Source: Planctomycetota bacterium (GTDB taxonomy: Bacteria; Planctomycetota; Planctomycetia; Pirellulales; UBA1268). Taken from it: DNA of 51,780 bases. The translations under genes were made by a program, and so were the position numbers. This document shows positions 20,183-51,780 of the stretch, piece by piece. The notes below the pieces were generated by a model. It searched no databases. It had not been told where the DNA came from and saw only the letters and a list, made by a program, of their open reading frames with translations. How positions within the stretch are numbered: the stretch's first letter is position 1; the number at the start of each line of letters is the position of its first letter. The stretch is from contig JAQCJP010000001.1 in NCBI GenBank assembly GCA_027592945.1, forward strand, positions 1 to 51,780, read 5' to 3'.

Positions 20183-20283
20183 GAGGGGTGAGCCCGTGCC
20201 GTGGAGCCGGCGTTGCTGGCGACGTGAAGGCAGGGATGCCGAAAGCGAGCGTCCGGGCGACACGGCACGGGCTTGCCCCGAGC
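20183..20283. repeat. Hairpin repeat element, copy 1 (101 nt)
   Basis: Positions 20183-20242 are 60/60 identical to 25693-25752. Positions 20243-20283 match 25793-25833 with 3 mismatches. The terminal inverted repeat is GGGGTGAGCCCGTGCCGTG (20185-20203) against CACGGCACGGGCTTGCCCC (20261-20279), with 2 mismatches. The element starts 40 nt after the stop of the isomerase-like gene. Confidence 0.85.
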
Positions 20284-25625: not shown

Positions 25626-25692
25626 AGTATTGGGGGCCAGTGGGCTTCTATTGTGTTCGCGCGGACACGGAATCCGGGTTCGTGAGGGGTGA

Positions 25693-25833
25693 GCCCGTGC
25701 CGTGGAGCCGGCGTTGCTGGCGACGTGAAGGCAGGGATGCCGAGAACGAGCCAGCATCGAGCGAGCGGAAGGCAGGATGCCTGAAGCGAGCGTCCGAGCG
25801 ACACGGCACGGGCTCACCCCGAGCTTGCGCGAG
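25693..25833. repeat. Hairpin repeat element, copy 2 (141 nt, with 40-nt internal imperfect duplication)
   Basis: There is a perfect 19-bp terminal inverted repeat: GGGGTGAGCCCGTGCCGTG (25695-25713) against CACGGCACGGGCTCACCCC (25811-25829). An extra 40 nt (25753-25792) contains GAAGGCAGGATGCCTGA, a near-copy of GAAGGCAGGGATGCCGA (25736-25752). The element lies between the convergent kinase and rhomboid genes. Confidence 0.85.
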
Positions 25834-26772: not shown

Positions 26773-26907
26773 GAGAGCCGCCGCGTGATGCGGTCGGGAG
26801 GGAGGGAGGATGGCTCAGAAACCTCCCCATCGTACCGATACGCAGCGGCCTGAATCAAAACGTCGTGAACTCTGGCGGGGAGCCGGGGGTGAAAGCCTCC
26901 GTCGCCA

Positions 26908-27254
26908 GGGATATTTCGCCGCCGCGCCAATCGTGATAGCAACGTCCGATGGGCGAAATCTCCAAAGGCTCCTTCGGCTTCCACCCCCGGCTCTGCACCG
27001 CGGCCCTGCGTTGGCGAGGCTGCCGGAATCGGCGAACGCTCGACGAGCCTTTTGGGGATTTCGCCCCCTCGAGGAAGACGCTTCACAACGGGTGCCGCGA
27101 AATCCCCCGGCGAGGAGACTTTCGCCGTTCCGGCAGCCGGCGGGCGATGCTATCCGATCCGCCTTCCGGGATTCGCCCCATTGAAATAGTCACTTCGGCT
27201 ACGGACGCCGCCAAAACACCCAGCAAGGAGACGTTTGCGGTTCCGGCAGCCGGC
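26908..27254. repeat. Cluster of short inverted and direct repeats in the 537-nt intergenic region upstream of the oxidoreductase gene
   Basis: The GGGGATTTCGCC-type motif occurs five times in alternating orientation: 26908-26920, 26952-26963 (rc), 27054-27064, 27097-27107 (rc) and 27168-27179. The pair 27054-27064 / 27097-27107 is a perfect 11-bp inverted repeat. There is also a 28-nt direct repeat, GGAGACtTTcGCcGTTCCGGCAGCCGGC (27114-27141) against 27227-27254, matching 25/28. Confidence 0.7.
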
Positions 27255-48276: not shown

Positions 48277-49315
48277 CCGACCGAGGGCCCGGTCCGGCCG
48301 CATGATCGTCAGCCGGCCGCGGCGTGCGAGCCGGACGTTCCTGAGAACCACGGAGCGGGGGGCCGGGAGTCCTGCCTGGCCGCCGGGGGCCATTCCAGCC
48401 ATCCCGCGGCTGTTCTCGCCCTTCCCCCTCCCGGCGGTCGCGGCCATCGTCCCAGCGGCGGGATAGCGACCGCGGATCGAAGCGGCCCAGCCACTCGAGC
48501 CGATCTTCAAGCGTCATCTCGATCGTGCCCCGCCGCATTGGCGGCGGCGTGGCCGCCACGATCACATGCCAAAGTCGGGCCGCGTCCCGGGCTCGGTCGT
48601 TGCGTGGATCGGCCAGCACCCGGGCCACCGCAACGAGATCCCGCCGCTCGATGCGGGAAAGCTCGCCCATCGAATCAACCGCCCGCTCCAGCCGGCTGCG
48701 TGCATCCACTGGCATTCCCAAGATTCGCCCCCGGCGGGCAGCGATCACCGCCTCGCCGCCATTGCCGGCTGCCTCCGCGGCGGCCAGGCTTTCGATCGCT
48801 TTGTCGAACTCTTGCGCCTCCTCGTGGAGCGCCTCCGGATCACGGCCGAATCGCAGCCACCGGGGTGGCGGTCCCTGGCCGGCGGCCATCCGGTTCGCCA
48901 ATGCTTCAAGAAAGGCGACGCTGCCCGCCTCGCGAAGGAGATCGAAGTTCTCGATGAGGGGCAGACTCTCGAGCACCTGCCGATCAGGATCAGGAGCCGT
49001 GATCCGGCCGGCGACCACGCCAGTCGCCAGGGCGACGGCGACAGCAAGGAGGGGAACCCCCCAACGCCGGCCGATACCGCCGTTCTCGGCACCGGGCCGA
49101 GCCCCGCCGGCAACCTTGGCAGCCACCAGGTCGACCGTGGTGGCGGCCAGGTCGATCCGCGCCGGCACCGTCGGCAGGCAGTCGAGCAAATCCCAGACCT
49201 CCCCGAGGTCGGCAGCGGGGCCATCGCGGCAGTCCCCTGTCGCTTCAGGCCGGGATGCCTGCTCCGGCCGAGTGTGCAGGTCGTGGTGGTCGGCTGGCTG
49301 AGCCACGACGTTCAC
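48203..49315 (-). CDS. Putative anti-sigma factor (single-pass membrane protein)
   Basis: This is track ORF 48203..49429 trimmed to the GTG at 49315, which overlaps the sigma stop as GTGA. It has one TM helix (WGVPLLAVAVALATGVVAG) and an Arg/Pro-rich tail. The function is assigned by position only. The last 74 nt overlap the convergent hydrolase gene. Confidence 0.5.
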   Translation of the reverse strand: MNVVAQPADHHDLHTRPEQASRPEATGDCRDGPAADLGEVWDLLDCLPTVPARIDLAATTVDLVAAKVAGGARPGAENGGIGRRWGVPLLAVAVALATGVVAGRITAPDPDRQVLESLPLIENFDLLREAGSVAFLEALANRMAAGQGPPPRWLRFGRDPEALHEEAQEFDKAIESLAAAEAAGNGGEAVIAARRGRILGMPVDARSRLERAVDSMGELSRIERRDLVAVARVLADPRNDRARDAARLWHVIVAATPPPMRRGTIEMTLEDRLEWLGRFDPRSLSRRWDDGRDRREGEGREQPRDGWNGPRRPGRTPGPPLRGSQERPARTPRPADDHAAGPGPRSVRPPGPPPASGPREVPEETRALPR

Positions 49316-49935
49316 TCCTCGAGATAGGGCTTGATCGCGTCGCGGAGCTGCTCGCGGGCTCGAAAGAGCAGCGACTTCACCGCCGCCACCGAGAGCCCCA
49401 TCGCGGCAGCAATCTCCTCGTGGGAGCACTGCTCGAACTTCGCAAGCAGGATCGCCATCCGCTGCCGGTCGCCGAGGCTCTCGACGGCCTTGCGGACCAC
49501 GCCCTGGAGTTCGCCGCGGTCAGCAATGCGGGCGGGCAAGAGCCCGCTGGCCGCCACCGCCAACTGGTCGAGGCCGATCTGGCTCGACGAGGCTGAGGCG
49601 GCCTGTGGCACGCCCCGTTCGCGGCGGCGGTAGGCCCGCTGCTTGAGGTCGCTGCAGACGTTGTTGGCGATCGTGTGCACCCAGGTGGTGAACTTGGCGG
49701 TCGGCTGGTAGCGGCCGCGGGCCCGGTAGACCCGCATGAAGGTCTCCTGGGCCAAGTCCTCGGCGGCGGCGTGGTCGCCGAGCTGGTGAAAGAAGAGCGT
49801 GACGAGCCGGTCCTGCCAAAGCTCGACGAGTTGGGCGAAGGCAGCCACGTCGCCATCGCGGACGCGGAGCATTAATGCGGTGGAGCGGTCACCCGCCGCG
49901 GAAGCCGGCAACACCGCCGAGTCAGTCGCCATCAC
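49312..49935 (-). CDS. ECF-type RNA polymerase sigma-70 factor
   Basis: Region 2 reads AEDLAQETFMRVYRARGRY..F.TWVHTIANN. Region 4 reads DRQRMAILLAKFEQCSHEEIAAAMGLSVAAVKSLLFRAREQLR. Confidence 0.9.
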   Translation of the reverse strand: MMATDSAVLPASAAGDRSTALMLRVRDGDVAAFAQLVELWQDRLVTLFFHQLGDHAAAEDLAQETFMRVYRARGRYQPTAKFTTWVHTIANNVCSDLKQRAYRRRERGVPQAASASSSQIGLDQLAVAASGLLPARIADRGELQGVVRKAVESLGDRQRMAILLAKFEQCSHEEIAAAMGLSVAAVKSLLFRAREQLRDAIKPYLEE

Positions 49936-50276: not shown

Positions 50277-51780
50277 ATGCCCGTCCCCCCGATCGTCGTC
50301 CGCGGCGCCCGCGAGCACAATCTCCGTGACGTAACCGTCGGGCTGCCCCGCGGCCGGCTGGTCTGCCTGTCGGGGGTGAGCGGCTCGGGCAAGTCGAGCC
50401 TCGCCTTCGACACGCTCTACGCCGAGGGCCAGCGGCGGTATGTCGAGAGCCTCTCGACCTTCGCCCGCCAGTTTCTCGGGCAGCTGCCCCGGCCTGACGT
50501 TGATGCCGTCACCGGCCTCTCCCCTTCGATCTCGATCGCTCAGAAGTCGGCCGGCACCAACCCCCGCTCGACCGTGGCGACGATGACGGAGATCCATGAC
50601 TTCCTGCGGGTGCTCTTCGCCCGCGTCGGCACGGCCCACTGCCCGGAGTGCGACGCGGTGCTCGAGGCCCAGCCGAGGGATCAGATCGTGGAGCGAATCC
50701 TGGCGGCCCGCGAGGGCCGGCGGGTGATGATCCTCGCGCCGGTGGTGCGGGAGGCGAAGGGCACGCACCGCGAGTTGTTCACCGATCTCGTCCGGCAAGG
50801 CTTCACCCGGGCCCGGGTCGACGGCGGCATCTGCCGGGTCGAGGATCCGCCCAAGCTCGAGAAACTTCTCAAGCACACGATCGACGTCGTGATCGACCGG
50901 CTCGTGCCCGGCGAGAGCTCCCGCAGCCGGCTGGCCGAGGCGGTCGAGCTGGCCCTCAAGACCAGCGGCGGCCAGGTGATCGTCGCCGAAGAAGAGCCCG
51001 ACACAAAAAGGGGACATTCTGCTTTTTCTGAGAGGCCCGAGAAGCACCTGAACGCAAAGGGTGAAAAAAGCAGAATGTCCCCTTTTTCCGATCTCGTGCT
51101 CTCCAGCCGCTATGCCTGCGCCGCCTGCGGGCTGAGCTACGACACGCCGGAACCGCAGCTGTTCAGTTTCAACAGCCCCCAAGGCGCCTGCCCGACCTGC
51201 GAGGGCCTCGGCGACATCTACGGGATCGACCCGGCCAAGCTCGTCACCGATCCCGACAAGTCGCTCCGCAAGGGAGCCCTCGGCGTGCTCGGCCGCTTCC
51301 GCGACATGCCCCGCTGGCTGCGGCGGCTCTTGAACGGCGTGGCCAACCATGCCGAGGCCAAAAAGAAGCTCGCACCGGGCACGCTCCTCGACACGCCCTG
51401 GCAGGATCTGACGCCGGCCCAGAAGAAGATCTGGCTCGACGGCACCGGCCTCGACACGATCAAGCTCTCCTGGCGGCGGGGCCGGGCCGAGCGAGGAGCC
51501 AACACGAAGTTCGAGGGCATCCGGGCCCTCCTGGCCAACCGCTGGCGAAACGCCAGAAGCGGCATCATCCGGCGGATGCTCGAGAAGCTGATGAGCGTCA
51601 CGCCCTGCCACGACTGCCGGGGCGCCAGGCTCTCCCCGCAGGCCCGGGCTGTCAGGATCACCACCGGCTCGGCCAGCTGGGCTGCGGCGGCGAAAGCAGG
51701 GGGCCGCGGTCCGGCCGCCACCGCGGCCGGCCGGAAGCGAACGACGAGCCGCGGCCGCCCGGCGGCAGCGAGTTCCGACG
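50277..51780 (+). CDS. uvrA: Excinuclease ABC subunit A (partial; continues beyond the right edge)
   Basis: This gene is not in the track because it has no stop inside the window. Manual translation from the ATG at 50277 reads MPVPPIVVRGAREHNLRDVTVGLPRGRLVCLSGVSGSGKSSLAFDTLYAEGQRRYVESLSTFARQFLGQ...SISIAQKS...YACAACGLSYDTPEPQLFSFNSPQGACPTCEGLG...CHDCRGARL. The long track ORF 50247..51611 on the minus strand is its antisense shadow. Confidence 0.9.
   Translation, partial: MPVPPIVVRGAREHNLRDVTVGLPRGRLVCLSGVSGSGKSSLAFDTLYAEGQRRYVESLSTFARQFLGQLPRPDVDAVTGLSPSISIAQKSAGTNPRSTVATMTEIHDFLRVLFARVGTAHCPECDAVLEAQPRDQIVERILAAREGRRVMILAPVVREAKGTHRELFTDLVRQGFTRARVDGGICRVEDPPKLEKLLKHTIDVVIDRLVPGESSRSRLAEAVELALKTSGGQVIVAEEEPDTKRGHSAFSERPEKHLNAKGEKSRMSPFSDLVLSSRYACAACGLSYDTPEPQLFSFNSPQGACPTCEGLGDIYGIDPAKLVTDPDKSLRKGALGVLGRFRDMPRWLRRLLNGVANHAEAKKKLAPGTLLDTPWQDLTPAQKKIWLDGTGLDTIKLSWRRGRAERGANTKFEGIRALLANRWRNARSGIIRRMLEKLMSVTPCHDCRGARLSPQARAVRITTGSASWAAAAKAGGRGPAATAAGRKRTTSRGRPAAASSD
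51005..51087. repeat. 83-nt AT-rich palindromic element (23-bp perfect stem, 37-nt loop) embedded in-frame in uvrA
   Basis: AAAAAGGGGACATTCTGCTTTTT (51005-51027) is the exact reverse complement of AAAAAGCAGAATGTCCCCTTTTT (51065-51087). By my count G+C is 38/83. The uvrA frame reads through it without a stop. Confidence 0.9.

Follow-up and report, generated by a model that had tools for sequence, protein, structure and literature searches.

A REPIN-like palindromic doublet inserted in frame in uvrA of a Pirellulales bacterium, and its relation to RAYT/TIRYT-associated repeats

Introduction

Among the repeats associated with REP-associated tyrosine transposases (RAYTs), the classical repetitive extragenic palindrome (REP) folds on itself into a stem-loop and carries an unpaired GT[AG]G 5' of its foot, and REPs are generally described as species-specific (PMC6006769). 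RAYT homologues of TnpA_REP subclass 2.1, termed TIRYTs, are flanked by GGGGWSAS inverted repeats instead of REPs, and further copies of these repeats lie scattered, either alone or in dimers and clusters (Di Nocera et al. 2013, PMC3733652; Quentin et al. 2018, PMC6006769). Within coding sequences, Di Nocera et al. 2013 (PMC3733652) report intragenic REPs in both uvrA genes of Opitutus terrae (PVC superphylum), in uvrA of Thioalkalivibrio, and in uvrB of Rickettsia conorii, as well as several repeat families in Rhodopirellula baltica, and speculate that it is no coincidence to find REPs in repair genes. Furthermore, paired REPs (REPINs) at orthologous intergenic positions in Pseudomonas are reported to change in the manner described below for the uvrA site, and RAYTs have been suggested to "modify or replace" REPINs (preprint 10.1101/2024.10.14.618302). 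The present study concerns a 51,780-nt stretch of a Planctomycetota bacterium of the order Pirellulales (GCA_027592945.1, contig JAQCJP010000001.1, positions 1 to 51,780; hereafter the window), in which an 83-nt palindrome (51005-51087) lies within uvrA. This palindrome is very probably a non-autonomous REPIN-like doublet of two inverted arms of 23-25 nt, linked to RAYT/TIRYT-type transposases and carried by uvrA as a tolerated passenger.

Compared with these systems, the element is a new family within the known RAYT/TIRYT-associated inverted-repeat doublets, and intragenic REP-like uvrA insertions are known in other taxa. It shares with the REPIN-RAYT system (Bertels and Rainey 2011, PMC3116915; Nunvar et al. 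2010) two inverted short repeats forming a long hairpin, a preference for extragenic DNA, many copies per genome, and a cognate repeat that flanks the RAYT gene, as in REPtrons. In addition, REPINs that occupy a single orthologous position can switch to the type fitting the RAYT of their genome (10.1101/2024.10.14.618302), and the uvrA site is similar in this respect. However, the classical REP is a GC-rich stem-loop with an unpaired 5' GT[AG]G, whereas the arm here does not fold on itself and its G[C/T]AG is paired; moreover, REPs are described as species-specific and vertically inherited and are known mainly from Gammaproteobacteria (RAYT groups 2 and 3), whereas the present arm occurs in several phyla. 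The likeness to TIRtrons and TIRYTs lies in Y1 HUH RAYT-like genes flanked by non-GTAG inverted repeats, in the dispersal of singles, dimers, and clusters at moderate copy number, and in a start resembling GGGGWSAS (at 7/8 positions), here GGGGACAT, with GGGGACGC, GGGGACGG, and GGTGACAG at orthologous uvrA sites. Unlike those repeats, the arms here have AT-rich AAAA/TTTT clamps and are conserved to the base across phyla, and the available text of PMC3733652 and PMC6006769 reports no in-frame coding copies of TIR repeats.

Two further systems resemble the element in their coding positions. The intragenic GTAG/CGTC REPs of Di Nocera et al. 2013 are likewise palindromes in frame in uvrA and other repair genes, read as extra residues and thought to be tolerated in loops or linkers, but they represent other repeat families (GTAG- or CGTC-tagged stem-loops) and insertion sites, and no orthologous series with turnover at one site is described for them. 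The Rickettsia palindromic elements (RPEs) also occur in frame in functional genes and are tolerated as surface additions; in contrast to the RAYT-associated element, they measure about 100-150 bp, are confined to Rickettsia, and have no known dedicated transposase, while RPE-4 and RPE-6 are shorter and correspond to CGTC-type repeats. The uvrA element is therefore set apart from RPEs by taxon, size, and transposase link, and resembles them in behaviour alone. A preliminary description of the window, made from the sequence alone, had drawn the analogy with RPEs and knew of no such behaviour in planctomycete-like genomes; for this region of the bacterial tree, however, it is already on record, with the intragenic REPs in uvrA of O. 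terrae and the REP families of R. baltica (PMC3733652).

Results and Discussion

Structure and composition of the element in uvrA

The left arm (AAAAAGGGGACATTCTGCTTTTT, 51005-51027, plus strand) and the right arm (AAAAAGCAGAATGTCCCCTTTTT, 51065-51087, plus strand) were exact reverse complements at 23 of 23 positions and were separated by a 37-nt loop (CTGAGAGGCCCGAGAAGCACCTGAACGCAAAGGGTGA, 51028-51064, plus strand) that is not conserved in the arm family. This geometry, like the other factual statements of the preliminary description, held up on recomputation. The left arm is one unit of a dispersed repeat and is identical to its cross-phylum consensus, while the right arm has GCAG where the common variant arm has GTAG. 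The host reading frame starts at about 50277 and leaves the window intact at its end, covering the N-terminal 501 codons of uvrA (50277-51780, plus strand), and homologues 77-83% identical to the window UvrA are annotated as excinuclease ABC subunit A. Translation also bore out the reported in-frame insertion, the element being read as ..EEEPDTKRGHSAFSERPEKHLNAKGEKSRMSPFSDLVLSSRYACAACG... None of the six frames of the arms contains a stop codon, and the loop is open on the plus strand only in the reading frame actually used.

The compositional contrast described earlier was likewise evident, with a G+C content of 38/83 (0.46) in the element versus 0.71 in the rest of the uvrA segment, and a G+C content at third codon positions (GC3) of 0.48 across the 29 element codons versus 0.91 elsewhere in the gene. 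As for folding, which the preliminary description had proposed to compute, a hairpin of -40.4 kcal/mol was predicted for RNA (z = -4.9, equalled by none of 200 shuffles) and one of -25.2 kcal/mol for DNA (z = -5.5). The bases outside the hairpin foot were merely biased towards R and Y. Moreover, metagenome contig L124 (loci are denoted by L and a number), which matches 2587 nt of the window at 99.5% identity, carries the identical element, and the element is thus genuine rather than an assembly artefact, L124 being an independent assembly.

Several other types of element were considered and dropped. A CRISPR-like array does not apply since the arms are inverted rather than direct and are dispersed; the architecture does not fit an integron attC or Xer site; and an intein or intron was discarded since the element is too short and is translated in frame. 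A sequencing adapter or artefact was likewise set aside, given the multiple copies, the diverse genomic flanks, and the independent assembly that carries the element.

Distribution of the arm family

A scan with the 19-nt arm core, using one genome per species, returned exact matches in at least 115 contig stretches, mostly of Planctomycetota metagenome-assembled genomes (MAGs), compared with about 4 matches expected by chance for a 19-mer in 596 Gb by our own estimate. Among the matches listed, Planctomycetota were represented by Gemmataceae, Pirellulales, Lacipirellulaceae, Thermoguttaceae, Planctomycetaceae, Phycisphaerae, and Sedimentisphaerales, and Gammaproteobacteria by four Woeseiaceae MAGs, Ectothiorhodospiraceae, Steroidobacteraceae, and others, with single listed matches in Gallionella, Rhodospirillaceae, deltaproteobacterial lineages (including the isolate Geomesophilobacter sediminis), Acidobacteriota, Binatia, Methylomirabilales, and Anaerolineales. 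In ten MAGs the arm was present on 3-13 contigs each (lower bounds), e.g., on at least 13 in VGYL01, at least 8 in JBDKUU01, and at least 4-6 each in CALGAS01, JBIIYN01, JBJTSM01, CAMYMR01, and CAMYJZ01; the MAGs with at least 4-6 contigs include some of Woeseiaceae and Ectothiorhodospiraceae. Many copies were located at contig ends, as expected since repeats break assemblies. These at least 115 related stretches, with many copies per MAG, favour the earlier proposal of a miniature palindromic repeat that has colonised a coding sequence. The simple motif AAAAGGGGACATTCTGCTTTT can serve to flag no fewer than 115 sites of this kind, at many of which assemblies are broken off into contig ends.

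The arm, loop, and gene-context counts given below rest on these 115 loci, with three mismatches allowed in the arms. They contained 234 arms, of which 170 were arranged in 85 head-to-head hairpin pairs and 64 were unpaired. The consensus over all 234 arms was RR-AAAA-GGGGACATTCT[G 0.83 / A 0.15]C-TTTT-YC, starting with GGGGACAT and having sharp bounds with random composition beyond, and each doublet was bordered by runs of A and T. Arms standing alone or in direct tandem were common, as were doublets whose loops measured only 1-7 nt. Of the long loops (at least 20 nt), 42/50 were unique in sequence, loops being unrelated between copies, and loops of about 15 nt were self-complementary and lengthened the stem. 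It was also observed that the loops of paired arms fall into length classes of about 4-7, 15-16, and 35-39 nt, with steps of about one and two helical turns. At locus L062 (1960-2020), an ATTCTGC arm was followed directly by an ATCCCCCG arm, and at L001 (about 6088) a solo arm of the GCAGCTC family lay 185 nt from an ATTCTGC doublet in the same gene.

A search of Rfam with the element at E <= 10 returned only generic miRNA-hairpin noise, all under gathering scores, and a literal search for the arm sequence across 8 million papers gave no match; as far as these searches could find, the family of arms is undescribed. A scan of IMG/VR viral contigs for the arm also yielded no match, leaving a phage vector without support.

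The distribution bears on the notion that the palindrome arose in place, by chance or through quasi-palindrome "correction", or that it reflects misassembly. Hypervariability of the UvrA loop throughout Planctomycetota and the small local hairpins at the uvrA site of L121, L122, and L130 would agree with such an origin, but the arms equal the consensus found at at least 115 other places across phyla, arm matches appeared in 0/100 dinucleotide-preserving shuffles of the window, and the independently assembled L124 contains the element unchanged. An origin in place or by artefact is effectively refuted.

Association with a REP-associated tyrosine transposase

To characterise the neighbourhood of the arms, the 184 ORFs adjoining them were compared all-against-all, and one informative cluster was recovered, whose members carry the HUH motif CLMPNHFH(L/V)V. 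Homologues 55-67% identical to the L030 protein of this cluster were identified by tblastn in L056 (Woeseiaceae) and in L045, L015, and L107 (Planctomycetota). In all five loci (L030, L056, L015, L045, and L107), arm cores occurred on both sides of the HUH/Y1 gene at distances of 13-305 nt. Those of L030 and L056 formed part of complete hairpin doublets, situated 13-79 nt from either gene end. This arrangement identifies the element as a REPIN-like doublet. The gene products, 208-217 aa in length, matched the Pfam family Y1_Tnp (45-54 bits, cutoff 23), and the sole natural-protein match in the PDB was TnpA_REP of E. coli (4er8; E = 1e-6, residues 9-141), beyond which a C-terminal extension of about 70 aa remains. 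By our estimate, five RAYT loci among 115 segments of 8 kb are well above the expectation for random sites if a genome has one RAYT gene or a few. In addition, the arm has kept every base across phyla, whereas transposase identity has dropped to about 55%. Such a contrast may reflect horizontal spread of a system whose recognition sequence is unusually strict, which would run against the species-specific, vertical view of REPs. This base-exact arm, together with the apparent exchange of arms at a single coding site described below, goes beyond the routine features of such repeats.

The same neighbourhoods speak to a classical miniature transposable element with inverted repeats (MITE), i.e., an internally deleted insertion sequence that a DDE transposase mobilises in trans through recognition of the 23-nt terminal inverted repeats. 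These repeats, together with the small size, the many copies, and the variable interior, give a superficial fit, but none of the junctions showed a target-site duplication, nor did one emerge at the uvrA site from comparison with empty orthologues, and the common solo arms, direct tandem arms, and 1-7 nt loops are at odds with it. Furthermore, no DDE transposase recurred beside the arms among the 184 neighbouring ORFs, the Y1 HUH transposase being the only recurrent transposase-encoding family there. A MITE is accordingly very improbable, and the miniature palindromic repeat proposed earlier is better specified as a REPIN-like doublet linked to a RAYT/TIRYT tyrosine transposase.

Several observations weigh against the RAYT/TIRYT assignment. 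No RAYT gene was found in the 51.8-kb window by tblastn with the L030-type transposase, and no second copy of the arm (up to three mismatches) occurred there either; a degenerate search of the window for further arms of the superfamily recovered the element itself only. A single arm forms no stable stem-loop, only a 5-bp AAAAG/CTTTT clamp, and an unpaired GT[AG]G is missing 5' of the hairpin foot, G[C/T]AG sitting inside the paired arm. The start GGGGACAT fits 7/8 positions of GGGGWSAS, with T where S is expected. Against the NCBIfam model NF047646 ("REP-associated tyrosine transposase") the transposase scored 80 bits, exactly at the cutoff, and Pfam detected Y1_Tnp alone in these proteins even at E <= 10, leaving the C-terminal HTH (helix-turn-helix)/DnaA_C-like domain undetected, a further apparent difference from TIRtrons and TIRYTs. 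The mostly unique long loops are not predicted by a simple copy-and-paste of whole doublets, and the gene contexts derive from an ORF and GC3 heuristic, not from real gene calls. To our knowledge, mobilisation of such repeats by TIRYTs has never been shown by experiment.

For a RAYT/TIRYT-linked doublet of this kind, the arms would presumably be cut and joined by the REP-associated HUH/Y1 transposase, which, by analogy with the IS200/IS605 family, may move or renew them via single-stranded DNA and would leave no target-site duplication. The uvrA copy would have arrived after the lineage of the window split from its nearest sampled relatives, and may have survived because it landed in frame, because its arms are free of stop codons, and because it occupies a disordered, length-tolerant surface loop. 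The family offers a tractable case for studying RAYT/TIRYT action on repeats, in-place replacement, and movement between phyla.

A second inverted-doublet family was observed in the window at 20183-20283 and 25684-25824, both intergenic, with arms GGGGTGAGCCCGTGCCGTG; its interior is conserved between the two copies, the second of which has an internal duplication of about 40 nt. The start of these arms (GGGGTGAG...) fits GGGGWSAS at 8/8 positions, and the presence of this family suggests that the genome of the window hosts at least two RAYT-type repeat families.

Position of the insert in UvrA and in the genome

The element encodes most of a hypervariable loop of UvrA (codons 237-271, 50985-51089, plus strand), as delimited by PDB alignment and an AlphaFold2 model. 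In the alignment to UvrA 9gxk_A, window residues 6-236 correspond to 26-256 and residues 272-461 to 263-445, so that residues 237-271 stand in place of the 6-residue turn 257-262, in agreement with the earlier statement that other UvrAs have only a short loop at this point. The insert lies where the UvrB-binding domain ends on its C-terminal side, and the second CxxC of zinc module 1 follows about 10 residues later. In the AlphaFold2 model, built with 50 homologues, the UvrB-binding domain had pLDDT values above 90, while residues 243-269 fell below 50 and formed coil between strands 233-238 and 273-276. The insert is thus predicted to be a disordered surface-loop excursion, in line with the surface-loop location proposed earlier, since it falls in a turn of solved UvrAs. 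The length of this site varies across all Planctomycetota UvrAs, the turn that ends the UvrB-binding domain accepting 10-60 extra disordered residues. The element is most likely a neutral addition of 27-29 disordered residues rather than a functional part of UvrA. For annotation, the odd AT-rich uvrA segment of low GC3 is hence explained as a tolerated repeat and not as a frameshift, an intein, or a contaminant.

With regard to the genomic niche of the family, the ORF and GC3 heuristic placed a gene 3' end, facing the element within 200 nt, beside 74 of the 118 elements away from contig ends, often 0-30 nt past the stop codon, whereas 12/118 were inside ORFs and 13/118 had no neighbour. About 1 in 10 copies was in frame inside a real gene. 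According to Pfam, such copies were found between the two ABC_tran domains of an ABC ATPase (linker, L052), within the CHASE2 domain of a CHASE2 cyclase (L115), between the halves of DUF7133 (L001), and between the halves of HGD-D (L113), and a solo arm was in frame at the start of the aconitase domain in L025. Relative to coding density, intragenic copies are strongly under-represented, as purifying selection would predict, and yet they are recurrent.

In addition to the loop discussed above, a second low-complexity variable insert of UvrA was observed in the window at 51650-51780, after the motif ..RLSPQARAVRI.. (SASWAAAAKAGGRGPAATAAGRKRTT...). At this second site in L122 (11380-11450), the frame is broken by a small hairpin (CCGCACGC-TGAAAA-GCGTGCGG) with a TGA inside, and a 1586-aa ORF with UvrA domains begins 6 nt past this hairpin. 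Several orthologues are likewise called split or "partial" UvrA, and the length of UvrA in the clade of the window appears to be about 2000 aa.

Turnover at the orthologous uvrA site

Comparison of the DNA at 64 orthologous uvrA sites revealed GGGGAC-type inverted doublets at 21/64, with at least six arm families. Doublets with GGGGACATTCTGC arms were present in the window, L124, L116, and L027; those with GGGGACATTCTCCG / GGGGACATCCCCCG arms in L126, L131, and L132; those with GGGGACGGGAGCG arms in ten loci; those with GGGGACGCAGCTC arms in L120 and L123; and those with GGTG[A/C]CAGCCACC arms in L118 and L119. Single or collapsed hairpins occupied the site in L121, L122, and L130, and the remaining loci had short (down to AVEDGADLILS in L143) or long non-palindromic sequences. 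The hairpin of L121 comprises the first 14 nt of an L118-type left arm and the last 13 nt of the right arm, implying a central deletion. In L027 (1230-1390), a Pirellulales MAG from Lake Mendota, a 1.5-fold tandem duplication of the element was observed in frame (KRGHSAFSTEEVRSADTGDGKSRMKKRGHSAFSTEEVRSADPGDGKSRMSPFS), which indicates ongoing rearrangement at the site. The site was empty in close orthologues such as L117, L125, and L143, and no distant orthologue had arm peptides encoded by non-palindromic DNA of normal G+C, so the comparison of orthologues favoured the insertion put forward in the preliminary description.

On a neighbour-joining tree of the flanking UvrA protein (161 columns, low resolution), the state of the insert was patchy. 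The window grouped with P0004 and P0019, both of which are without its element, while GGGGACATTCTGC-type arms around an unrelated loop were also seen in another clade (P0033, L027). Moreover, the near-identical sisters P0025 and P0005 have different arm families, and the sister of P0020, which has a single hairpin, is P0002, where the site is empty.

These data can be set against a selected role of the hairpin as a cis-acting element tuning uvrA expression, an action at the mRNA or DNA level having been raised as an alternative in the preliminary description. The hairpin might be an internal attenuator or terminator-like structure (A-tract, 23-bp stem, U-tract), affect mRNA stability, pause translation, or bind protein or extrude as a cruciform in DNA. 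Its stem is predicted to be highly stable whether RNA or DNA, its borders of A and T runs are those of a bidirectional terminator, the family usually lies right after stop codons (the short-loop copies there having a terminator-like look), several arm families at the uvrA site have all retained complementary arms, and the speculation of Di Nocera et al. on repair-gene REPs would agree as well. However, close orthologues have no element or only decayed or collapsed remnants, and a required regulatory role would not be expected to show such a patchy distribution on the tree. Identical arms are found in unrelated genes and in intergenic DNA, arm conservation tracks the family (transposase) and not uvrA, and mechanisms such as arm replacement or template switching can also keep the two arms complementary. 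Furthermore, the 37-nt loop is outside the canonical range of intrinsic terminators (3-8 nt), the element is inside an ORF, and a terminator/promoter scan raised no flag. A cis-acting role is therefore considered unlikely relative to a tolerated REPIN-like passenger.

The loops provide a further view of the REPIN-like doublets at this site. Those of L118 and L119 were homologous to those of L129, L142, and L149 (z = 12-13.5 versus shuffles), although the arm families differ; loop identity was 0.72-0.80, about that of the third codon positions of the flanks. For L119 versus L149, identity was 0.74 in the loop and 0.75 in the flanking uvrA third positions, with arms matching at 19/28 and 16/26 positions. 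For L129 versus L142, which share one family, the arms matched at 23/26 and 26/26, the loop at 0.70, and the third positions at 0.64. Overall, arm identity was 0.58-0.68 between families and 0.88-1.0 within a family, and core positions 7-14 were entirely different between arm families. In every doublet orthologue the left core was the reverse complement of the right core at 12-14/14 positions, and L118 and L119 differ by one compensatory exchange of A:T to C:G. The ATCCCCCG family was tied to the L118/L129-type loop by a weaker signal (z about 3).

Two arm families around one homologous loop suggest that arms were swapped in place, and as judged from these sequences the simplest reading would be that both arms were replaced together while the loop was kept and drifted neutrally. 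The adjacent arms of different families in L062 and L001 offer a route to such replacement. For the loop of the window itself, no homologue was detectable at the site (z < 1), even in L116 with the same arms, and the window copy thus seems either to have arrived separately or to have taken the place of a whole doublet; its perfect arms, equal to the family consensus, suggest that it is young or actively maintained. Apart from these doublets, no other GGGGAC-type doublet was found in 323 kb around 88 uvrA-related loci (L116-L203), and repeated occupation of the uvrA site is thus unlike random insertion. We infer that the uvrA loop is a long-lived docking site for GGGGAC-type doublets.

A fuller scheme is advanced tentatively, with somewhat more doubt than confidence. 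In this scheme, RAYT-type transposases would renew or exchange the arms of doublets docked in the uvrA loop, both arms switching together in place while the loop drifts, as part of a horizontally spreading RAYT-repeat system with strict recognition. If it is true, the orthologous series would document, in nature and at base resolution, the conversion of REPINs by transposases, and the hypervariable UvrA loop would draw its raw material from DNA of REP origin. With at least six arm families at one coding site across 64 orthologous sites, the flanking codons and the loop offer a built-in molecular clock.

Additional observations in the window

Overlapping inverted repeats were noted at 26880-26993 and 26951-27066, with complementary arms of 18 nt (94%) and 16 nt (94%), respectively. 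In addition, an extracytoplasmic function (ECF)-type sigma-70 gene (49312-49935, minus strand) is located divergently upstream of uvrA, and this synteny was kept in every relative examined.

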